Of a stretch of DNA of 64,000 nucleotides, positions 20,442-32,712 are shown one piece after another. The first letter of the stretch is position 1; every line of letters begins with the position of its first letter. The stretch lies in assembly GCA_965203325.1 (NCBI GenBank), contig OZ241875.1, forward strand, positions 1,472,001-1,536,000, written 5' to 3'. This DNA comes from a bacterium (GTDB lineage Bacteria; UBA8248). A model generated the notes under the pieces. That model saw nothing but the letters and a program-made list of their open reading frames with translations, was not told the origin of the DNA and made no database searches. Both the position numbers and the translations under genes were made by a program.

Positions 20442-21883
20442 TCAATCAGTCGGCGTTGGAGAACCGAAATAGCCGCCCCCGCTCAGGACGGCCTCTCTCC
20501 CGCCGTATCGCTCCACCAGGGCCGACTGATCGGCCCTGGCTTTTCTGTCTGCGGCCTCGGGGTCGACGACCCCCCGAAGTGCTGTTTCAAATTCTTCGAT
20601 AAGAGAATTGTAGCCCGGTTCCCGCGCGAGGTCGAACGTCTCTTCAGGGTCGCTTTCGAGGTCGAAAAGCTCGGGCGCGAAGTCCACATAGTGGATGTAC
20701 TTGTACCGCCCGCGCCTCAGCATATACCCGCCCGTGGGCGCACCCGCCGCGTGGTATTCGCTGAAGACGGCGCGCTCGGGATCATCTGCACAGCCCGCGA
20801 GGCCAAACCACGATTCGCCGGGCAGTTCGCGCTTTTCTTCTTCGGTCAACTCCTCCCCCACGGCGGCCAGGATGGTGGGATAGGCGTCGGCGAGAGATAC
20901 CGCCGTCCGGCATACCTTCCCCGGGGGACGTCCGGCCCCGCCAGCACGAGCGGCACAGCGGCCGATTCCTCATAGAGCGTGCTCTTGCCCCAGATGCCGC
21001 GCTTGCCCAGGCTCTCGCCGTGGTCGCTCGCGTAGACCACGCGGGTTTTATCGTCCAAGCCAGCCGCCTCGATAGCGCCCAGCACCGCGCCTACGTTCGC
21101 GTCCATGAACGAGCACATCCCGAAATAGGACGCGACCGCCACGCGGCGTTTCTCCTCGTCCATGTAATCGTCATACGGCCAGGCCTTTCGTATCGCGCGC
21201 ACCCAGGGGTGGTGCGTCGGGTCGTCGGCGGATTTGAGCGGAGACAGCGGCATTTCCTCCGCCGGGTACATCGCATAGAACTCGGGCGGCGCCACGAGCG
21301 GGTAGTGCGGCGCGAGGAAGGAGACGAAGAGCACCCAAGGCCGCTCGCCATCCCGCCCGCCCGCCTCTTCTATCCACTCACACGCCCGCTCGGCGATCTG
21401 CCTGTCGTAGCGCAGGACGCTCGAATCGCCCGGTCCCAACTGCTGGGCGAGTCCCTTGGTGGCGGTCTTGGGCGGCATCTCGGCGCGGAGCGCACCCGCG
21501 AGGTCGCCGCGTCCGTCCTTGACGTGCATGGGGAGGATTTGATCGTCCAGACCGGTGGGGTCTGTCGTGTTGCGGTAATGGAGCTTCCCGATCGAGACCA
21601 CCCGGTGGCCGGTGGCCTGCAGGCGGTGCCCCCAGCCGGGGACCCGGCCGTCGTAGGGGTGGGCATTGTCCCAGTAGCCGGTCTCGTGCGCGTAGCGGCC
21701 CGTGGCGAAACTCGCCCGCGCGGGCACGCAGATGGGGCAGTTCGTATAGGCGGCCGTGAAGCGCGTGCCCGACGCCGCGAGGGCGTCGATGTGGGGCGTC
21801 TTCACGATCTCGTGTCCGCAGCAGCCGAGGGTCCGCGCGTTGTGCTCGTCGGACATGATGAAGACGAAATGAAGCGGTTCCAT
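20442..21883 (-). pseudogene. Choline-sulfatase-like sulfatase with one frameshift near 20925
   Basis: SDEH, CVPARAS (CxPxR), GKLH, SDHGE, GKSTLYEES; after GPDVP the alternative frame reads GKVCRTAVSLADAYPTIL and continues into ORF 20442-20861 (FSEYHA, ELFDLESDPEE). Confidence 0.8.
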
Positions 21884-22203
21884 TCATGAGTCCCGAAAAT
21901 GACGCCAATGTCATGATGAATGCGCCGTTGCATGTTACCACAGAGCGGGGATTTTCAACCTGGGACGGCACAGGCTACAGGGGCAACCCCGCTGATAGGC
22001 GGCTCCGAAGAAAACAACCAGCGGAATTGCTCCAGCTGTTCCGCGCGAATCAACCAAGAGGGATGCTTCCAAGTGAAGACGCCTGACGGCCCGCCCCCCG
22101 TTCCCCGATTCCCCACTTGCTCTATAATCTTACTGAAGACCCAAGAAGCGGGAGACCCATTGCTGCACGAGTAGACCACACGAGGAACACGAGGAGACCC
22201 GAG

Positions 22204-22641
22204 ATGCGCTTAAAGACCCGACTCATCCTATGCGGAATCATCACCCTCATTCTTGCGCTCGCGACGACTGCGTCGGCGTTCGAGCAGCGCATTCCGGCGC
22301 GGGTGACGAGAGTCATCGACGGCGACACCTTCAAGGTTGAGGCCAGGGTGTGGCCGGGCATCACCGCGCAGAGCAACGTGCGCGTGCGGGGCGTCGACAC
22401 GCCCGAGATCAGGCGCGCGAAGTGCGGCGAATACGAGCGACGGAGGGGCCTGGCTGCGCGCGATTTCGTGCGGGGCGTCATCGGCGAGCGCGTCTGGCTC
22501 GTCAACGTGACGCACGGCAAGTTCGGCCGCCGCGTCATCGCCGGCGTTTTGCTGGCGGACGGTCGCGACCTCGCCACGCTGCTCCTCGCCACCGGCCACG
22601 CCCTGCCCTACCGGGGCGGACGCCGCCCGAGGTGGTGTTGA
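22204..22641 (+). CDS. Thermonuclease (SNase) family protein with signal peptide
   Basis: RVIDGDT, VRVRGVDTPE, GKFGRRVIA. Confidence 0.88.
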   Translation: MRLKTRLILCGIITLILALATTASAFEQRIPARVTRVIDGDTFKVEARVWPGITAQSNVRVRGVDTPEIRRAKCGEYERRRGLAARDFVRGVIGERVWLVNVTHGKFGRRVIAGVLLADGRDLATLLLATGHALPYRGGRRPRWC

Positions 22642-22797: not shown

Positions 22798-24525
22798 TCA
22801 ACACTCAGGCTTGGCGCTCTCCGCAACGCGGACAATCGCATCCAGCTTTTCTGTGATCTCAGGATCGATTTCCTCTTCAGGAACATAGGAAGCGAGTTCG
22901 TAAAACTGCTTCTTGGCCATGAGATTGGGTAATTCGAGTTTGTCGAAATACGACTTGAACAACGGGGTGAGAAATTCATCGCTTGCCTTGATGTCGGCTC
23001 CCCAAGGCGACCCCTTGTCGAGTCTCTCCAAGGCCCCTTCTATCTCGGCAATCGCTTCTTGCATCGCCCCTAGCCGTCTATCGACTTGCGGTGTGAAAAG
23101 GGTCTCTTCTTCTAAGTCCACTGAGCCTCGCGCATAGGCTTCCAAGGTCGCCTGGGTGCAGAAATAGTTTTCAATCTCAGACTTTTTCCACATCAGACAC
23201 CTAAGAGTCCCGCTTTCCGGCATACCGGCCTGGAGTCGGTCGAAGAGCGCCAGGCCCTTTAGCTCCGGACACGCTTCTCTCAGGCCGTGATAGTGATGCG
23301 CCGCCTGTAGCGGCTGATTGCCAACATAATGTACGAAGGGCCGTTCCAACGCCTTCATCGCCCTTTCATGGCCGAGGCGACTTGCGAAAGCCCGCAATAC
23401 CGCCAAATCCGTAGAGCCTTCAAGATAGAGCACCCAACCGGTCTGTTGGGCTTGATAATACTGATCGAATCCGATCTCGCGGAGCGCCTTTTGGACCTGG
23501 CTTCCCTTGTCGTCGATTCGGTGGGGCGAACCGACGAAAGCGATAACCATATCCTTGCCTGCGGCTTCGTTCAAAAGAACTTCCGAGTGACTTGCCGCGA
23601 TGATCTGGTTGCCGCGTTCTTCCGCTACATCTGTGATCAACTTGTAGATTTGCCGTTGCCTGAGGATTTCCAGATGCGCGTCGGGTTCATCCAAAAGGAC
23701 AATCGCACCGGGATTCGCGTACATATAAGCCAATAGCAACAGAGTTTGCTGCAACCCCCGTCCGCTGGAGGAGAGATCAAGCAGGGTTTCATTCTCTCGA
23801 TAATCCATCACTATCTCACCCCGCTCCGCTACATAGCGGGGGTCGTTTAGCTTAGACCCGAAGAGGTCGTCGATCTGTATTACCAATTCTTTCCATCGCT
23901 CAGGATCATCGTTTTTCACCTTGAAGCAAAGATTACGCAAAACCTCTGCCGTGCGCCCTTCACCCACCCGCACGTTCACCGCCCCTACGTCGAGCCGCGT
24001 CTCCGTCGCCGCTAGACCGGACATTGGGGGAAGGAAAGCAATTTGTGTTGAACCGGCCTCCTTGGGAATCGGCATACGATCAGGCGATTTACCTTCCCCG
24101 AGGCGCAGAGGCCGGCAATAGAACGACTCGGGGTTCGCGTAGTCGAATTCGAGGCCGCAAGTCCACGCCTCGTCTTGAGTGATTCCCTCGACGATGAGGT
24201 CAATCCGTATGTTATCTGTCCGCTGACTCCCTTCGATTTTCTGCACAACCCTTGTATGGAGTTCTCGCCACAAGAGAGCCGCGTTTGGAACGGGAATGGC
24301 CAGGAGATCTCTGCGGTTGATGGTGACGCCCGGACGATTCTCCGGCGTAGTTTTCCCCGAGCGTTTCTCGTTCCAGCGCTTCAGGCCGATATCCCAAAGG
24401 GCCAAAGCCTGCATGGCGGAGGTCTTACCCGAATTGTTCGGGCCGATGAATACCACGGGGTTCCCCAACTCGACCTCAACCTCGTCAAAGCGTTTGAAGT
24501 TGCGGGCTGTGAGTTTGGTGAGCAT
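22798..24525 (-). CDS. ABC-type ATPase with TOPRIM-like C-terminus (OLD-like)
   Basis: NFKRF, GPNNSGKT, LSSSGRG, LLDEPDAHLE, ASHS; YLEGSTD and EIENY in the C-terminal half. Confidence 0.78.
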   Translation of the reverse strand: MLTKLTARNFKRFDEVEVELGNPVVFIGPNNSGKTSAMQALALWDIGLKRWNEKRSGKTTPENRPGVTINRRDLLAIPVPNAALLWRELHTRVVQKIEGSQRTDNIRIDLIVEGITQDEAWTCGLEFDYANPESFYCRPLRLGEGKSPDRMPIPKEAGSTQIAFLPPMSGLAATETRLDVGAVNVRVGEGRTAEVLRNLCFKVKNDDPERWKELVIQIDDLFGSKLNDPRYVAERGEIVMDYRENETLLDLSSSGRGLQQTLLLLAYMYANPGAIVLLDEPDAHLEILRQRQIYKLITDVAEERGNQIIAASHSEVLLNEAAGKDMVIAFVGSPHRIDDKGSQVQKALREIGFDQYYQAQQTGWVLYLEGSTDLAVLRAFASRLGHERAMKALERPFVHYVGNQPLQAAHHYHGLREACPELKGLALFDRLQAGMPESGTLRCLMWKKSEIENYFCTQATLEAYARGSVDLEEETLFTPQVDRRLGAMQEAIAEIEGALERLDKGSPWGADIKASDEFLTPLFKSYFDKLELPNLMAKKQFYELASYVPEEEIDPEITEKLDAIVRVAESAKPEC

Positions 24526-24671: not shown

Positions 24672-24892
24672 TCACCCCAAAACCTCTTTACACGCCGCCT
24701 CGATGTGCGCTTGTCCGATCTGTAAGGCGTCGTAGACTTCGTGCGGGAGGCCGCTCCGGCCGAACTGGTCGGCGCCCGGCGCGCCGCCGAGGAAAGAGAG
24801 CGCGAGCGAATGCCCATCCAGCACGGAGACGACCGGGTTGTCGCGGTGCGCATCACCCACCATCATCTCGAGGCGCGAGGGGCGCCCCGTTT
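24672..24892 (-). repeat. Diverged copy of the last ~220 bp of the TPP-enzyme gene ending at 30339
   Basis: Encodes RPSRLEMMVGDAHRDNPVVSVLDGHSLALSFLGG...HIEAACKEVLG*; 21-bp deletion between CTGGTCGG direct repeats relative to the gene. Confidence 0.92.
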
Positions 24893-24975
24893 GGCTTCCA
24901 GGACCGTATTCACCGCGCGCTCCGCCTCGGCCTTAGGCAGCGAGCCCTGCTCCGTGGCGGGGGCCGCGATATCCT
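24893..24975 (-). pseudogene. Possible HU (histone-like protein) N-terminal fragment
   Basis: Hand translation DIAAPATEQGSLPKAEAERAVNTVLEA resembles HU helices 1-2. Confidence 0.4.
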
Positions 24976-25228
24976 GTGCAAGCAACGGCTTTGGGCATGG
25001 GCTTCCATGGTTCGACTCTACGATATGCAGCCCGGATTCGAGCGTAATCAGGAGCTCTGTCAGCCGCAGGAGTCAAGCATTGCCGCATCGCACGTTCCTG
25101 GTGGTGCGGATGCGTTCCTGTGAACATACCGGGCTGTTGCGACAAAGCGCAGAATGCAGATAACATTTAGGATCATCCACTCCGGCCTTGGCCGGTTGGT
25201 TTGCGTTTACCGGGAAAGGGGAATTTCG

Positions 25229-27703
25229 ATGAAGATCGCTTTGGCGGCAGCCGCCGCTTATGCAGCGCTGGCGGTGATGATAGCCCATGCCGGACCACTC
25301 GCGCCGGCGCCACAGGTCATCGCCGAATACGACCGCAAGTTCATCGAGCGCTCGGGCGCCCAGACGATCGAGGAGCTGTTGGACACCGGCATCATCCGCT
25401 ACTTTTTCACCGGGGGACGGGATCTGCTCGTCCTGGTGAACGGCAGACCCTATGCCACCACCGGCCATAACCTGGATTCCCTGCCGCTCTCGGCCGTGGA
25501 GCGCATCGAGGTTCTGAGAGGCGAGAGTCTGAGCACGCTGGGCGGCCACGCCGCCATAAACGGCGCGTTCAATATCGTGCTCAGAAAGGACCTGGACGGC
25601 TTCGAGGCGCGGACGGTTACGCGGATGCCGAGCAAGGACGGTGGTGACGGCTGGCAGGGCAGCCTCTTCTGGGGCGGCGCGGTCGGCAAGGGAGGACGCA
25701 TGACCATCGGCGTGGACGTGCTGGACCGCCAGGAAATCCTCGGAAAGGACCGGGAACACAGCCGCTCCGAGTGGGTCGAGGGTGGCAGCTTCAGCGAAGC
25801 CAAGAATATCAGCGTCGGTGGCAACACCGTCTATGTCTCCCGGATAGACGACCAGGGAGCATTCGCCGGCTTGAGGTCGCTGCCACTGGGGGACTGCGAC
25901 CCGTCGCTAGGCTATGTCGGCCCGCTCAGCAATCCGCCCGGTATCCGCACGGGCGACGAGGGCTGTGGTTACGCCTATGGAAACATCTGGTGGGACACGC
26001 CCAGCTATGAGCAGAAGAGTGCCGTCCTGAACCTGGAGCATCCCCTCGGAGAGGACGCCGAATTCCATCTGGACGCGAACATCAGGCAGGGCCGCGGGGC
26101 GTTCCGCTACGCGCCGTCGATCGACGTGTTTTCCTTTACGCCGAACGAGACGTTGCTGGATGAGCTCAGGAGAGCAGCTGACCCCGACTTCCAGTTGGGA
26201 GAAAACGACGAGTTCGTCGTGGGGCACCGCTTCATCGGCCACGGCAACCGTGACTGGGTGACGGACACCGAGGAATACGACATTTCCGCAAGCGTTGAGG
26301 GTCGTCTGGCTGAAGGTCTCGGCTATGATGTGCGCGTCAGCGCCTCCCGGCTGGACTATTCCGTGTCCGGCGACACCTTCGTGCATGCCGGCAGGATCAG
26401 GGAAGAGATCACGAGTGGGAATTACAACCTCGTGAACCCGTTGGACCCGCGTAATTCCGCAGCGATCGAGAACAGCAGCTTGCAGGAGGAGGAGAATGCC
26501 AGTTCGGAGTATCTTGGCGCCCGGCTGGCGCTGGAGGGCACGGGCTTCGCTATCGGCGGGCGCCAGACGGCATGGACCGCGGGGGTCGAACTGGGGAGCG
26601 CGGACGCGCACCGTCTCCTGGTCTTTCGGGACAAGGACGGCCATACCCATAAAGTGACCGAGGTGCTCGGTTCCGGCGGAACCAGCTATGCCGGCAAGCG
26701 CGACATCGCCGCGGCCGTCGCGGAGATGTCCCTGCCGCTGACCGAGGATCTGGAAATCAGGGTCGGTGGACGCGGCGATGAATACGACGATATCGGCGGA
26801 TTGGAATCGTGGCGTTTCGGAGCCGAATACCGGCTGACCGGCATCGTCACGCTGCGCGGCTCGTGGAGCGCAGGCGAGACGGCGCCCTCGATGCGGCATA
26901 TCTACAGCGACGCGTCGCAGGACCACCCTTATGTCGTTTGCGACCCCGGGAGCGGACCGCCGCCCCGCACATGCGATAGTCCGAACTACCGGCAGGTGAC
27001 GCGCGAGACGAGCGGCAACCCGGGTCTCGACCCTTCAGGCTCCGAGATGCTCTCTTTCGGCGCCGAGGCCCGCAAAGGGCCGTTCTATCTCGTCGCGGAC
27101 TGGTACCGGCTCGCAACATCCGACCAGTCGGGGCAGAACAGAGCCACCTGGGCCATGTTGAACCTGCAAGAATGCCAGGGCGGTAACCGGAAGGACTGCA
27201 TCGAGCGCATCGGCGGCGACATCACCATACACGACAGCTTTGCGAACATTGTCGATACGGAGATTTCGGGCGTGAATTTCCGTTACGGCGCGCGCATGAG
27301 AATGGATTGGGGCGTTATCGGAATGCGCGGGTTCTGGCGGCACGTCATCAGCACCAAACAGCAAATCGCGGGCGAAAAGCGGCGGTTTCCCCTCCCCCGG
27401 GATGCCGTGCGCGTCGTCGTCTCGGCCGGGCGCGGCAATCTCACCGCTTTCTGGTCCACGAACTACCGCTCCGAAATCGAGAATCAGTCGGACGAAGGGA
27501 GGTTCAAGTCCTGGACCGGCCACGATGTAACACTCGACTGGAAGCGGCCGCTGGGGCTGGAAAACGTTCGGGTGACCGCGGGCGTGTACAACGTCACCGA
27601 TTCCAAGCTCTCGACGAATACAGCCAACCCCTCCGTTACGGACGGACCCAGAGCGGCCGGTTGGGGCCGCACCTTTTTCCTCACCCTCAACATGCGGTTC
27701 TGA
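25229..27703 (+). CDS. TonB-dependent receptor
   Basis: Plug motifs LVLVNGRP, PLSAVERIEVLRG; barrel strands; GVYNVTD and C-terminal FFLTLNMRF. Confidence 0.9.
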   Translation: MKIALAAAAAYAALAVMIAHAGPLAPAPQVIAEYDRKFIERSGAQTIEELLDTGIIRYFFTGGRDLLVLVNGRPYATTGHNLDSLPLSAVERIEVLRGESLSTLGGHAAINGAFNIVLRKDLDGFEARTVTRMPSKDGGDGWQGSLFWGGAVGKGGRMTIGVDVLDRQEILGKDREHSRSEWVEGGSFSEAKNISVGGNTVYVSRIDDQGAFAGLRSLPLGDCDPSLGYVGPLSNPPGIRTGDEGCGYAYGNIWWDTPSYEQKSAVLNLEHPLGEDAEFHLDANIRQGRGAFRYAPSIDVFSFTPNETLLDELRRAADPDFQLGENDEFVVGHRFIGHGNRDWVTDTEEYDISASVEGRLAEGLGYDVRVSASRLDYSVSGDTFVHAGRIREEITSGNYNLVNPLDPRNSAAIENSSLQEEENASSEYLGARLALEGTGFAIGGRQTAWTAGVELGSADAHRLLVFRDKDGHTHKVTEVLGSGGTSYAGKRDIAAAVAEMSLPLTEDLEIRVGGRGDEYDDIGGLESWRFGAEYRLTGIVTLRGSWSAGETAPSMRHIYSDASQDHPYVVCDPGSGPPPRTCDSPNYRQVTRETSGNPGLDPSGSEMLSFGAEARKGPFYLVADWYRLATSDQSGQNRATWAMLNLQECQGGNRKDCIERIGGDITIHDSFANIVDTEISGVNFRYGARMRMDWGVIGMRGFWRHVISTKQQIAGEKRRFPLPRDAVRVVVSAGRGNLTAFWSTNYRSEIENQSDEGRFKSWTGHDVTLDWKRPLGLENVRVTAGVYNVTDSKLSTNTANPSVTDGPRAAGWGRTFFLTLNMRF

Positions 27704-27857
27704 GGATCCGTTCGAGAATGTTCAGGGACAGAGGATGGAGCGGAATCCGGTCGATGATGAATGCGGTTTTCCTATAACTCCATCCCCCGATCCGATCGGG
27801 TCTTCTCCATCGCCGGCTGCCGCCCTTCGCCCGGATGCAGCGTTCCCTTCTGCTTTT

Positions 27858-27980
27858 CCGTCACGAGTTCCGCCCGGTCCCGGGCGCGGCTGATCTCGAC
27901 GTATAACGTCTTCTGGGTGGTGAACCCGGGGTGGTTCGCCTTCATCGCGGCGATGACGGTATCGAGCGTGCGGCCCATCA
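27858..27980 (-). pseudogene. Fragment of a TrwC/TraI conjugative relaxase-helicase C-terminus
   Basis: GRTLDTVIAAMKANHPGFTTQKTLYVEISRARDRAELVT matches SF1 helicase motifs V-VI of MOBF relaxases. Confidence 0.7.
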
Positions 27981-28081
27981 TCTTCCACAAGCTGGGTCGC
28001 GACTCCGCCGCCGCCGGGCGCCACCCTGTACCCGGGTGGCGGGGACGGCGATACAGGCGTGGGGAACAGTCGCTCACGCCG

Positions 28082-29251
28082 CTACTCCAACGCGCAGCCT
28101 TTGCGCTCCCGGCGCAGGCAGCCGAGGTTGCGGTGGAACACCGCCGCCTGCGCCCGCGCGAAGCCGGCCGGGCCGGAGCCGTTCTCCCGGCTGTCTTGGT
28201 ACCGCGCCCAGTCGCCCTCGTTCCCCTCGCGCCAGTAGCCGCCCAGGATCTGCGCGGGCAGGGGCTTGAGCTCGGGCAGGGTGTTGTAGCGGGCCCCGGG
28301 CGGGCCGTCGCGGCCGGGCAACAGGCGGCGCTCGCCGAGGTAGCCGTGGAACGAGTAGAAGGCGTCGGAGCCGGGGAGGAAGGCGAGCTCGTAGTCGACG
28401 GTGCGGTCCGGTTCGGTGATGTCGTCCGCCGACATCATCGGCCGCGTGCCGAAACCCATCATGAAGGCCCTGGCGTCATGGTCCAGAAACCGCACCGCCC
28501 GGCGCGCCTTTCGCCCTGGAACGTGGGGGTACAGCTCGTTCGAGCGGATGGCCACGTCGACCTCGAAGCGTCCGTCGGGCCCGGGCGCCACCGACTCGCC
28601 GACCAGGTAGGTGCGCAGGTAGTTGTGCTGCTGCAGGGTCAGGGCGACGGGGCGCCCATCCGCGGCCAGGACCACGAACGCGGCGGTGTAGTGGTCGAGC
28701 TGGTGCCAGTCGTCGAGGTCCGCCACCAGCCGGAGCGGTATGGCCGCGACCGGGGATAGTCCCGCCGGCAGGCCGCTCACCCGGAACACCAGGTGGTAGG
28801 TGAGGACGGTGAATTCCCCGGCCGACCGGTCCGCCTCCTTCGGCGCCCACAGGCCGGTGCGCTCCACCGCGGCGTAGACGAGGGGCCGGGGCTCGGCCCC
28901 GCCCGGCACGTGCGTGAACTCGGCGCGGGCGTCGTCGCGGTAGCGGTTCAGGTCACCGGCGGTGGGGCCGTCGATGCGAACGCCGTCGCCCGTTACCAGG
29001 TAGCCGTGGGCGATGTAGTCGCGGTAGAAGTCGATGGGACCTTCGTGGCCGGCGGGCAGGTGGAAGCGCGGCGCGTGGCGGCGGGCCAGGGCCCGGTCGG
29101 CCGGACCGGCGGCGTCGGCCGGAGGGTTGGCCGCGAAATACTCGGCGAACCCGGGGCGCTGCGAGAAGTTGCCGTCGGCGGCGGCGGGGCCGGCCCACGC
29201 GCAGATCAGCACAAGCCCCGCGAGACAGCCGATCATGTATACGTAACGCAT
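28082..29251 (-). CDS. Secreted hypothetical protein
   Basis: 389-aa ORF, strong GC3 bias, signal peptide ending AGPAAA. Confidence 0.75.
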   Translation of the reverse strand: MRYVYMIGCLAGLVLICAWAGPAAADGNFSQRPGFAEYFAANPPADAAGPADRALARRHAPRFHLPAGHEGPIDFYRDYIAHGYLVTGDGVRIDGPTAGDLNRYRDDARAEFTHVPGGAEPRPLVYAAVERTGLWAPKEADRSAGEFTVLTYHLVFRVSGLPAGLSPVAAIPLRLVADLDDWHQLDHYTAAFVVLAADGRPVALTLQQHNYLRTYLVGESVAPGPDGRFEVDVAIRSNELYPHVPGRKARRAVRFLDHDARAFMMGFGTRPMMSADDITEPDRTVDYELAFLPGSDAFYSFHGYLGERRLLPGRDGPPGARYNTLPELKPLPAQILGGYWREGNEGDWARYQDSRENGSGPAGFARAQAAVFHRNLGCLRRERKGCALE

Positions 29252-29299
29252 CACATCACCGCGGAATGCCTGTGAACCCAGGTTTTCGGCCTTGTTGTG

Positions 29300-29398
29300 C
29301 GCGTTTCCAATTCCCCCTACCCCAAAACCTCCCGGCACGCCGCCTCGATGTGCGCTTGTCCGATTTGCAAGGCGTCGTAGACCTCGTGCGGGAGGCCG
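29300..29398 (-). repeat. Second copy of the 3' end (about 80 bp plus about 20 bp past the stop) of the TPP-enzyme gene
   Basis: GCGTTTCCAATTCCCCCTACCCCAAAACCTCCCGGCACGCCGCCTCGA...GGGAGGCCG versus 30322-30420. Confidence 0.92.
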
Positions 29399-29442
29399 TA
29401 AATAGATTGTCGAATTGCATCAACCGAAAATGCGGATACGGG

Positions 29443-29937
29443 TTATTCCGAACAGCTTTCAGGAGGACGCTCTTCAGGAGGCAGGAAGTCGATTCGCTCT
29501 TTCGAGGGGCAGCGAAATGTGAACGTCGTGCGTCCCTCATAGTTGCTGACCGCGAAGTCTCCTGCGCCGATGATATCCATACCAATCAGAACATCCGCAC
29601 CGCCGCTCAATCGTTCGGTTCCTATGACTCGCAGATTGCCGAATTCCACGTCGTTCAACAGCCGGATATTGATCAGATACGCCTCAACTGACCGGGCGTC
29701 GTAAACGCCTCGCACCCGGCTCATTCCTATGGCTTTGAGATTGCAATCCTCCACCACTCGCCGGGTAATCACGGTGCGCGTCGCACCCGTATCCCAAATT
29801 GACTTGTATTCCTGAAAAGTGGGCGCAGGGGAGCCTTCCGCAGGCGTATAGGCTGCGGCGATATGGACCTCGTTGATGAGGACATTCTTCCGCTCGTCGA
29901 AATATGTCGTAAAGGCGAAACTGGATGGTCCTGACAT
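29443..29937 (-). CDS. Retropepsin-like aspartic protease
   Basis: IWDTGAT catalytic motif and VLIGMDII. Confidence 0.85.
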   Translation of the reverse strand: MSGPSSFAFTTYFDERKNVLINEVHIAAAYTPAEGSPAPTFQEYKSIWDTGATRTVITRRVVEDCNLKAIGMSRVRGVYDARSVEAYLINIRLLNDVEFGNLRVIGTERLSGGADVLIGMDIIGAGDFAVSNYEGRTTFTFRCPSKERIDFLPPEERPPESCSE

Positions 29938-30183
29938 CTAGGAAAAACAGACTCTCGAATGGAAGGTCTCTATTGTGCTGTCCGGATCGGAACTGCATTC
30001 CTGCACGAGAAACGTGCCGAGTTCGTGCTTTTTGGCTGTCTTCTCAACGGCCTCCATCTCGTCGTCGTAAGTCCCGAGCACCCGCCGGTTCTTGATGACG
30101 ATGTATTTCCCCTCGTACTTCTGGGCGAGTTCGGACTGGTGATCGAGGTAGTATTGAAAATCATCTTTCAATAGCTGTTCCAT
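29938..30183 (-). CDS. Small DUF5678-like protein abutting the aspartic protease
   Basis: FQYYLDHQSELAQKYEGKYIVIKNRRVLGTYD; GGAG RBS. Confidence 0.7.
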   Translation of the reverse strand: MEQLLKDDFQYYLDHQSELAQKYEGKYIVIKNRRVLGTYDDEMEAVEKTAKKHELGTFLVQECSSDPDSTIETFHSRVCFS

Positions 30184-30338
30184 GGCCTTCTCTCCTGCTC
30201 AACAACTTCAGCCAAGGTCAGGCATGAGCCCCACCCCACAATCATAGTCTATCCATCGTGTTTGTGAAGTCAAATTCCGAATGTCCAAGATACATTCCAG
30301 AGTCGCCATGTGTTAAGTCGTGCGTTCCCAATCCCCCC

Positions 30339-32712
30339 CTACCCCAAAACCTCCCGGCACGCCGCCTCGATATGCGCCTGTCCGATCTGTAAGGCGTCGT
30401 AGACCTCGTGCGGGAGGCCGCTCTGGCCGAACTGGTCGGTGCCCAGGCATCGCTGGTCGGCGCCCAGCGCACCGCCCAAGAACGAGAGCGCCAGCGAATG
30501 CCCGTCCAGCACGGATACGATGGGGTTGTCGCGGTGTTCGTCGCCCACCATCATTTCGAGGCGCGAGGGGCGGCCCGCTTTTTTCGCCTTCTTGTGTTCG
30601 GCGTAAATCCTGTCCGCACTCGTGAGGACGTAGACGTTGGCGTGTATCCCCTCCGCCTCCAGCGCGCGGGCGGCGGCGAGGGCCTCGGGCGTCATCACCC
30701 CGCTCACGAAGAGGTTCACCGCGTTGGCACCCGCGCGGTAGCCGGGCGCATCTTTCGCCGAGTGAAGCAGGTAGCCCCCGCCCAGGACGTTATTCCTGAG
30801 CACCTCGCGCTTCAGGGGGTCAGCGAGCCACCCGGCGGGCAGGAGGTTCTGATCGACCTGCTTCGTGCTCAGGCGGAGATAAAACGCCGGGCAATCGGCA
30901 TCCCCGAGAACGCGGCCGATGGCCGAGAGGAGCAGCCACTCGACCTCGACGGCGAAGGTCGGCTCATAGGCTTCGAGCCCCGGCATCTCCAGGGATATGG
31001 CGGGCGTGAGGATGCTCTGGTGCGCACCGCCCTCCGGGGATAAGCTCGTGCCGCTCGGCGTCGCCACCACGATGAAGCGCCCGCCGTTATAGACCGCGTA
31101 GCGAAGCGCGTCGAGACAGCGGCTGATGAAGGTGTCGTACACCGTGCCGATGGGGCAGACCCGCACCCCGCAAAGCTCTTTCGAGACGCCGAAGGCCGCG
31201 AGCAGGAGCATCAGGTTGTTCTCCGATATCCCCAGTTCGATGTGCCGGCCCGCCGGGGACTCCTCCCACTTCAACAGCCGCTGCACCTGCTGTAAGGCGA
31301 AGAAATCCGCCTTGCCCTCGGGGTGGTATACCCCGCGGCGGTTGATCCAGCCGCCCAGGTTCGTGCTCACGGCCACGTCGGGCGAGGTGGTGACGATGTG
31401 GCGCGCGAGCGCGTCCTCCCGCGCCAAGTTCGTCATGATGGCGCCGAACGCCTCCTGCGTGGAAGTCTTGGAGGCGAAGTTCGCCCCCACTTCCCGGGGC
31501 ACGGGAGCGGGCACGACTTCCTCTCTCGCAAGCGTGGCCCGCGCGTCGTAGCGCGTAACCGCTCGCTCGACCGCGCGGGCTTCCGGCGCTTTCTCCCGAG
31601 AGAGGCGCCAGTTCCTCGCCCTCGCCTAGGCCCGCGGAATCGCGCAGTTCGGCGATCTGCGCCTCCGTCAGGAGCTGGGAGTGGTTCATCGGATCACCCG
31701 CGATGGGGAGCCCCCAGCCCTTGATGGTGTAGGCGAGGATCATCACGGGCTTATCCCTAACCCCGTCCGCCTCCTCGAGGGCCTCCAGGATGCACTCGAT
31801 GTCGTGGCCGCCCAGGTCGGACAGGAGCGCGGGCAGTTCCTCGTCCGGGTAGCGATCCAGCAGCCCCGCGAGTCCCTCGTAATCGCCCGCCTCACCGCGC
31901 GTGAGGCCCTCCCTTATCTCGCGCCCGCTTCTGCCGATGAGCATCTGGTACTCGCCGTTCGACATGTCGTCGATGCGCCGCCTCAGCGATTCGCCGTTTT
32001 TGAGCGCGAACGCGGCCTGCAGGCGCTTTCCGTATTTGAGTTCCACCACGTGCCAGCCGTGCAGGCGGAACTGATCGCGAATCTGCTGCGCCTTGCCGTC
32101 GGGCACGACGCGGTCCAGGCTCTGTCGGTTCAGGTCCACCACCCAGATGACGTTGCCGAGATGGGCCACGTATTCCTCCGCCAGCGCCTCCCAGATGTTG
32201 CCCTCGTCGAGTTCCGCGTCCCCCACCAGGGAGATGAAGCGCTGCGGCGGGCCCGCGCCGAAGTGATCGTCGATGTAGGACTGCATGAGCGCGGCGAACG
32301 AGGCGGCCACCGAGGGCAGCCCGAGCGAGCCGGTGGAGAAATCGACGGGGTATTCATCCTTCGAGCGGCTGGGATAGGCCTGGAGGCCGCCGAAGGCGCG
32401 GAGATCGCGTAAGCGCTCCATCGGCAAATCGCCGCGCAAGGCGTGGGCCGCGTGCAGGACGGGCGAGGCGTGGGGCTTAATGGCGAGCCTGTCCCCCGTC
32501 TTGAGCCAGCGGAAGAACATGGCCGTCATCAGGCTCACGACGGAGGACGAACTCGCCTGGTGGCCGCCTATCTTGATGTTCTCGGAGCCTGCGCGCAGGT
32601 TGTTCGCGTAATGGACGCTGTAGGTGGAGAGCCACAGGAGGCGCTTCTCGATAAGCCGCAGAATATCGGCTTCATCCGGCTCGATGGAGTTCGTCTCTGG
32701 CGGAGGGTTCAC
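30339..32712 (-). CDS. Pyruvate dehydrogenase E1/transketolase-like TPP enzyme with one frameshift near 31585
   Basis: KIGGHQASS, KPHASP, STGSLG, GDAELDEGN, NRQSLD, TIKGWG in the first frame; HIELGISENN, GTVYDTF, SPEGGAHQS in the second. Confidence 0.85.

Follow-up and report, generated by a model that had tools for sequence, protein, structure and literature searches.

The window analysed here is a 64,000-nt stretch of DNA, positions 1,472,001-1,536,000 of a single-contig 4.39-Mb bacterial genome (G000, 95% complete). It contains an aceE-like gene whose 3' end recurs twice downstream in the same orientation, each copy being followed by different genes. We refer to these copies as displaced tails 2 and 3, to the genes behind the successive ends as modules 1 to 3, and to the variable region between the aceE-like gene and a convergent nuclease gene as the slot. 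The best matching DNA on record for the window comes from sponge metagenomes, and the host is a sponge-associated bacterium. Compared genomes carry G-numbers (G000 being the window's own), compared loci L-numbers and sequencing runs X-numbers. The slot and its borders contain the following features.

30339..32712, minus strand: target gene, encoding an aceE-like thiamine-diphosphate enzyme (2-oxoacid dehydrogenase E1/transketolase fold) of about 790 aa (Pfam, NCBIfam)
30322..30580, minus strand: functional gene end, template of both displaced copies (sequence comparison)
29938..30183, minus strand: module 1, DUF5678 protein, 81 aa (Pfam)
29443..29937, minus strand: module 1, retropepsin-like aspartic protease, 164 aa (Pfam)
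29301..29398, minus strand: displaced tail 2, -82 to +17 relative to the stop end, TAG at 29317-29319 (sequence comparison)
28082..29251, minus strand: module 2a, 389-aa "secreted" protein with a predicted signal-like N-terminus (sequence)
27772..27981, minus strand: module 2b, internally deleted 3' end of a relaxase gene from the genome's twin-integrase mobile elements (sequence comparison)
25154..27703, plus strand: module 2b, TonB-dependent receptor, in cargo position between the relaxase end and the integrase end of a decayed element (Pfam, sequence comparison)
24893..24990, minus strand: module 2b, small-gene fragment joined to tail 3 through a 9-11 nt microhomology (comparison with G012)
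24672..24892, minus strand: displaced tail 3, -242 to the stop, with a TGA stop and a 21-nt internal deletion (sequence comparison)
22798..24525, minus strand: module 3, AAA ATPase, about 575 aa (Pfam; partial OLD/GajA/AriAB-type matches)
22117..22641, plus strand: SNase-family nuclease gene, convergent right-hand anchor of the variable slot (Pfam, relatives)

The aceE-like protein matched NCBIfam model TIGR00759 at E 2e-60, under the aceE cut-off, and its gene ends with TAG at 30339-30341 on the minus strand. The apparent division of the gene into two open reading frames (ORFs) at 31583-31588 is an assembly error, because contigs from all four runs compared lack the one extra base that causes it. 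The locus has an open frame of 794-849 aa in 15 of the 17 other same-genus genomes with the gene. Tail 2 matches the gene end over 99 nt at 92.9% identity (E 9e-35) and tail 3 (24672/24674-24892) over 240 aligned columns at 80.8% (E 5e-64); there is no further copy in the 4.39-Mb genome, where the next match has E 0.035. The three same-orientation tails reported in a preliminary description of this sequence, including the TGA and the deletion in tail 3, are thus real, and its remark that the copies differ mostly silently also holds. Tail 2 differs from the gene at 4 synonymous and no non-synonymous codons and tail 3 at 15 and 6, and the control comparison of aceE orthologues with G000 gave 321 synonymous and 75 non-synonymous differences in total. 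Tail 3 is the older copy, and eroded versions of it are also present in G012, G014, G017 and G018. GC-rich microhomology of about 7 nt and of 9-11 nt lies at two joints.

Neither tRNA nor tmRNA genes were found within the window as possible targets, and no inverted repeat at the tails was among the 25 longest of 112, no attC model having been run. We rejected an integron, as the slot has no integrase and the separators are gene ends.

Short-read contigs from six runs were examined for the joints of the array. One from X1 (24780-25947) bridges tail 3 to the TonB gene, contigs from X19, X20 and X21 bridge tail 3 to the ATPase, and another from X21 (29320-30351) bridges tail 2 to module 1. A contig from X22 joins an aceE-type end to the leader of the secreted gene and is indistinguishable from tail 2. 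None of the short-read contigs listed crosses the entire array; G012 has the identical three-tail order at 95% identity. Mis-assembly of the array is largely refuted.

The slot was compared in 18 same-genus genomes with a full-length match to the target gene and in 21 slot loci of relatives; a search of metagenome contigs added only 5 loci, 3 of them informative and 2 of those identical. Extra aceE tails are present in 8 of the 18 genomes (G002, G010, G011, G012, G014, G016, G017 and G018) and a single tail in the other 10. The cargo behind them varies as the preliminary description had anticipated, different genomes combining the DUF5678-protease pair, the 389-aa protein, the ATPase, a pentapeptide-repeat membrane protein, a RAMA-domain protein and others, among them a BCCT transporter, a tyrosinase and ankyrin proteins. 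The DUF5678 gene lies directly behind the intact aceE-like gene also in G011, G012, G016, G022 and L051-L053, and the secreted gene does so in G002 and G010. The start points of the tails vary across genomes (-242, -236, about -138, about -130, -83, -66 and -46), and tail 2 extends 17-20 nt beyond the stop in G000, G011 and G016.

Two of these arrangements bear on how the array arose. G010 is an exact empty allele for module 1, its intact aceE-like gene running directly into the secreted gene. As this gene end and secreted gene are colinear with tail 2 and the secreted gene of G000 (95.9% identity over 1322 nt), tail 2 was once the end of the gene. Module 1, its joint recognisably homologous in each case, stands ahead of the secreted gene in G000, G011 and G016, and ahead of the ATPase in L051-L053. 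The same module before different neighbours requires recombination within the tails, by which either a middle block was lost or the unit entered another allele. An allele with the intact aceE-like gene directly on the ATPase was not found among the loci compared.

The right-hand border has also been duplicated. G017 has the ATPase followed by a 3' fragment of the nuclease gene, then an aceE tail beginning at -236, further cargo and finally the complete nuclease gene; the 235-nt fragment is 99.6% identical to G017's own complete copy, and G010 carries a 79-nt nuclease fragment. A circle that took in the entire slot would be expected to leave such a duplication of the second anchor. As the SNase gene stands near full length at the slot end in 14 of 21 relative loci, its distribution marks it as a conserved anchor and not cargo. 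To that extent the cargo list of the preliminary description needs amending; its DUF5678, aspartic protease, TonB receptor, AAA ATPase, SNase and relaxase remnant were correctly named, and the nuclease belongs to the border.

The Pfam scan for recombinases covered 148 ORFs, comprising 146 of 163 cluster representatives from the 18 relative slots together with 2 window ORFs; four representatives that had been annotated before and the 13 shortest ones were omitted. No recombinase family was found in them, and none in the window's own slot; a single insertion sequence (IS) transposase occurred, at a single-tail locus. The earlier statement that no integrase is present therefore holds for the window's slot, although about 15 terminal codons of a twin-integrase gene survive in the orthologous block of G012. 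What is seen directly is that insertion was additive and duplicated a gene edge, that alleles occur both empty and filled, and that blocks were reassorted and tails eroded, with no cognate integrase in the sample.

Two further arrangements in relatives were noted. In L035 (G002:C187:1-9200) the intact aceE end is followed by a 189-nt copy of the 5' part of the secreted gene, by GCS2, ankyrin and GPP34 genes, and then by the complete secreted gene with an aceE tail, a layout like a nested 5'-type duplication inside the stack. The pentapeptide-repeat cargo gene is flanked by 29-30 nt inverted repeats in G007 and G017 (L042:1243-2512, L040:1418-2739), which suggests movement between miniature repeats.

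One part of the slot has a different history. G000 holds elements that carry a tandem pair of tyrosine integrases together with a relaxase of ~950 aa (for example G000:C1 3830899-3837568 and about ten similar loci), amounting to about 11 integrase pairs and 7 full relaxases, and the relaxase remnant in the window belongs to this family. The small-gene fragment at 24893..24990 continues in G012 into the sequence that follows integrase 2 of these elements, and the TonB block of G012 runs past the tail 3 joint of G000 into the last ~15 codons of that integrase. Sequence comparison thus identifies the TonB block as a relic of a twin-integrase element, and a decayed-element origin is possible for this block. 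Because the G000 joint at -242 sits on the 9-11 nt microhomology, it is a later deletion, and tail 3 was once longer. Relics of the element occur in only 2 of the 21 slots examined (G000 and G012), the left-end module of the element is not present in the slot, and tail 3 with the ATPase, and the secreted gene, each occur elsewhere without relics. The idea that twin-integrase elements target gene 3' ends was rejected: at the 13 left ends examined in G000 the alignments listed showed no gene-end direct repeat within 120 kb, and the repeats found were dispersed and intergenic. The stop context of the aceE-like gene (30326-30345) has a 17/18 nt match to a dispersed G-rich repeat beside one such element, which may be chance or an old repeat insertion. 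The small-gene fragment may be HU-like by its motif; Pfam gave no match.

The aceE-like gene is not alone in carrying such scars. Self-comparison of G000 gave 86 low-copy direct-repeat pairs 0.3-40 kb apart, 22 of them with one copy on a gene edge and the other beyond a cargo. Removing three (two paralogue blocks and one 20-kb pair touching by one base) left 19 pairs at 18 genes, ten of the 3' type (including aceE) and nine of the promoter/5' type. The survey for other gene-end duplications that the preliminary description had proposed yielded 17 more genes; aceE has no special status, being one of at least 18 sites of this sort in the genome, although it is the one with the most stacking. At the 17 other genes the copy-cargo-copy arrangement has repeats of 59-259 nt spaced 0.6-5.9 kb apart; 14 of these sites lie more than 60 kb from any integrase-like match, and neither the element integrases nor the relaxase finds a match in the cargo of the 17. 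The cargo includes MNT-HEPN, HicB (twice), AbrB/MazE, AbiEii, DUF2283, a methylase-HerA block, an amidase and binding proteins, toxin-antitoxin genes being frequent.

The ten 3'-type pairs have outer ends at -7 to +47 from the stop and inner ends at -54 to -261. Their codon differences are 63 synonymous and 26 non-synonymous, one pair showing 16 and 0 over 87 codons, and this bias fits two once-functional alleles better than a copied target that decayed. No motif shared by the 19 joints was seen by eye, and none of the 19 pairs is identical. The polarity of the repeats, with the intact gene keeping the edge, is a geometric outcome of any such duplication and was not counted as evidence of selection.

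Six of the other sites were compared in 16 congeners. All six have single-copy alleles joined to both flanks in some genomes and same-cargo alleles in others, as follows.

Thiolase site: single-copy alleles at 12/15 loci (1 exact, 11 with about 90-125 extra nt)
MFS site: single-copy alleles at 4/15 loci
Amidohydrolase site: single-copy alleles at 9/17 loci
Phosphoesterase site: single-copy alleles at 6/15 loci
Monooxygenase site: single-copy alleles at 4/15 loci
Hydrolase site: single-copy alleles at 1 exact/14 loci

G012, the closest relative at the six tested loci, is empty at two sites that are filled in more distant genomes. An additional repeat copy stands at the thiolase site of G014, and stacking is therefore not limited to aceE. 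At site B, 7 of 15 loci have cargo with only one repeat copy. The density of pairs was compared by one pipeline on 20-kb tiles, which gave 7 pairs per 400 kb in G020 (2 clear and 2 probable gene-edge pairs), 3 in G032 (0 clear, 1 uncertain), 4 in G006 (0) and 71 per 4380 kb in G000, many of them dispersed repeats. The events are too few to call the lineage exceptionally rich in gene-edge scars. Separately, small cargo at L201:13178-18508 (G020) is enclosed by two repeat pairs, of 99 nt and 169 nt, one within the other, which look like nested insertion-duplications.

It seems reasonably probable that the tails are stranded former working ends, and that the blocks were added by single homologous crossover with small recircularised fragments, with no integrase involved. 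The incoming DNA would derive from a relative in which the conserved gene had a different downstream gene, so that homology stops at the stop codon. The fragment would be broken at an arbitrary point in the gene, circularised and joined to the chromosome by one crossover. At each event the incoming end would repair the gene, the new block would be placed first, and the old end and old block would be displaced downstream, so that repeated events would build a stack without an integrase. The tails could then offer short stretches of homology at which blocks are lost or reordered, with microhomology deletions eroding them. At the aceE locus, module 1 was added before an allele in which the gene ran into the secreted protein, as the exact empty allele of G010 shows, and module 2 would have been added earlier, before an allele in which the gene ran into the ATPase. 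A twin-integrase element, whose relics are present, may later have given the relaxase-TonB piece and then decayed. The vehicle might be natural transformation, conjugative spill-over or particles, and the intermediate is presumed to be circular.

Several of the claims made beforehand can be judged against this scheme. Repeated insertion of DNA carrying a replacement 3' end is borne out as additive, stacking and reassorting at the tails (G010, L051-L053), but only two insertions are needed for three tails. The two outcomes named beforehand as refuting the idea, mis-assembled haplotypes and an invariant single-tail locus in relatives, did not materialise. Between the two routes then offered, single crossover of circles fits better, given the varied starts and the 17 other sites, and an att-like reaction fits less well, there being no gene-end repeat at the 13 left ends. 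The length and start of the repeats vary in both the tails and the 19 pairs and no fixed crossover sequence was seen, erosion contributing to the variation. ComEC, DprA and an AddAB-like pair are intact in G000; capsid family PF05065, the only family sought for a gene-transfer-agent vehicle, was not found there.

A number of results weigh against single crossover with circles. Ku and an ATP-dependent ligase were not found in G000, and there is no dedicated circularisation machinery. No circle joints or tail-to-tail skips were found among the contigs listed for the six runs, although contigs lose rare forms and this is not evidence of absence. The mosaic pattern that one crossover would leave within a repeat was not recovered at four other sites, and at the best site for this comparison the inner half of the closest empty allele resembles the displaced copy, contrary to the simple prediction. 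Comparison of G000 with G012 shows that tail starts vary partly by later erosion, which makes one original crossover point possible. For RecA, 60-100 nt at about 90% identity is a short repeat, which means that either the tails have eroded or the events are rare. The 19 pairs were hand-picked from the 86 candidate rows, and the nine 5'-type pairs have 13 synonymous and 29 non-synonymous codon differences and thus no synonymous bias, their start codons being uncertain.

The alternative that survives best, though we consider it unlikely, is that integrative elements targeted the 3' end of aceE, as e14 does icd, and later lost their integrases, leaving attachment-site tails by tandem accretion of the type seen in cis-mobilisable elements (CIMEs). 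Such accretion at gene 3' ends is established (PMC5704250), and icd and icdC flank e14 (PMC13626634). The TonB block is a real relic, bounded by the 3' end of a relaxase gene and, in G012, by about 15 final codons of integrase 2, which lie next to tail 3 in the orientation expected beside an att site; the genome is well supplied with such integrase pairs and relaxases, and the eroded tails would allow one original crossover point further upstream. Against this, none of the 13 twin-integrase left ends is bracketed by a gene-end repeat, relics lie in just two slots, and the ATPase with tail 3 and the secreted gene exist without them. The 148 ORFs scanned include no cognate integrase, and only the remnant in G012 was found. 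Starts from -46 to -242 leave no att core common to the modules, and traits of a decayed element are confined to the relaxase-TonB block, being absent from modules 1, 2a and 3 and from the 17 other cargos. Each of those 17 sites (0.5-6 kb of cargo; eight 3', nine 5') would need its own vanished integrase. The att repeats of integrative and mobilisable elements (IMEs) are typically 8-60 bp, according to PMC5704250.

A little less likely still is homology-anchored illegitimate recombination of linear DNA, with no circle taking part. An incoming strand would pair across the end of the gene and have its free end joined to the recipient at a point before the stop, or the slot would be duplicated by unequal exchange. 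This route yields the identical copy-cargo-copy product, and homology at one end with a microhomologous joint at the other is what we observe. It would draw on the intact competence genes and dispense with the end-joining proteins for circularisation that were not found, and it has been proposed for the displacement arrays of type VI secretion system (T6SS) immunity genes (PMC5361080). The cargo with one repeat copy at 7 of 15 loci of site B could be an ordinary replacement-type product. However, the linear route usually deletes recipient DNA, whereas recipient sequence has been duplicated and not lost for module 1 and at the precise empty sites. As described in PMC3240628, linear DNA with one-sided homology gave single-crossover duplications in 56 of 60 E. 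coli clones and products of the illegitimate route in 4 of 60.

We give very little weight to a long target-site duplication, in which a staggered-break insertion copies the resident gene end and the copies drift later. The extension of tail 2 by 17-20 nt beyond the stop, and pairs that are 96-97% identical, would suit it; the strong synonymous bias and intact frames of the displaced 3' copies, the clustering of outer ends at the stop and the lack of an identical pair among the 19 do not. Mis-assembly of strain haplotypes, conceivable in a single-contig environmental assembly with indel errors whose whole array no listed short-read contig covers, is the least credible of all, with the joints bridged by contigs of independent runs and the same order in G012.

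The locus is therefore best read as a stacked example of genome-wide, integrase-independent insertion-duplication, a natural variant of a known reaction and not a new system. Single-crossover insertion-duplication of a trimmed, recircularised fragment in an E. coli conjugation experiment (Amarir-Bouhram et al. 2011, PMC3240628) gives the same copy-cargo-copy product, with gene-end duplications of variable start and no integrase, the target duplications being 109-950 bp in 14 sequenced recombinants. That case, as reported, involved an engineered plasmid at about 6e-9 per recipient, whereas the events described here are natural, repeated, stacked, spread over 18 genes and segregating across a genus. 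Accretion of CIMEs, IMEs and integrative conjugative elements (ICEs) in the ICESt1 family (PMC5704250), like e14 with icd/icdC (PMC13626634), shares the replacement 3' end, the displaced ends between modules and modules that may lack integrases. Those systems have a fixed crossover and a cognate integrase; here the starts vary, promoter/5' ends and a second anchor are duplicated as well, and no cognate integrase was found. T6SS effector-immunity arrays and Rhs orphans (PMC5361080) likewise place a new module behind a conserved anchor and push older ones back, in an integron-like order without an integrase. As described there, they occur only at polymorphic toxin loci, where the old effector is usually lost, whereas here unrelated cargo stands behind a metabolic gene and the old end is kept.

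Integrase-free hotspots of E. coli (PMC2617782) and additive islands of Alteromonas (PMC5217437) also have a variable slot between conserved genes, with a duplicated 3' end taken to mark a single integration event. In Alteromonas it is tRNA ends that are duplicated, and these are ascribed there largely to site-directed recombination, unlike the case here. At more than half of the E. coli gene-acquisition hotspots every genome lacked an integrase, and that account did not settle how these hotspots arose (PMC2617782); most repeats flanking small variable segments are reported to be shorter than 30 bp (PMC2884548). Our literature search, with subscription journals outside its coverage, found no description of natural integrase-free gene-end duplications among the records listed.

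The mechanism proposed is a known laboratory reaction and implies no new enzyme; the natural stacking is unusually well documented. Traces of successive additions are preserved at this locus, alleles in 18 congeneric genomes are variously empty, filled or reshuffled, and 17 other genes bear the same kind of scar. Its signature (gene edge, cargo, dead edge copy) is countable and could be used to estimate how much gene gain requires no mobile-element enzyme. A much bolder proposal, which we hold only tentatively and think doubtful as it stands, is that in this lineage any gene edge may act as an attachment site. Host-encoded, sequence-independent uptake, trimming, end-joining and single crossover would then be the main entry route for small accessory genes, building integron-like stacks whose stranded ends are reusable shuffling handles, and toxin-antitoxin cargo would be enriched because addiction resists loop-out. 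If true, a route open to any gene edge would be a general answer to the founding and growth of integrase-free hotspots.

Some observations concern the individual genes of the slot. The DUF5678 protein and the retropepsin-like protease form a two-gene unit with a paralogue at G000:C1 2885707-2886433 (59% and 49% identical). Its arrangement resembles a toxin-antitoxin-like pair. A literature search on DUF5678, with subscription papers outside its coverage, gave nothing relevant among the records listed. The 389-aa protein had no family match in Pfam, NCBIfam or PADLOC. In six other genomes or loci the module 3 ATPase likewise follows a dead tail and has stayed intact (82-99% identity); with its partial OLD/GajA/AriAB matches only, it is a candidate single-gene, stand-alone defence protein. 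Some of its motifs, judged by eye, are presumably TOPRIM-like. Beyond the anchor, the sulfatase gene at 20442-21883 of the window looks frameshifted near 20900; contigs from X21 and X1 insert a base at 20916, and the frameshift is probably an assembly error.

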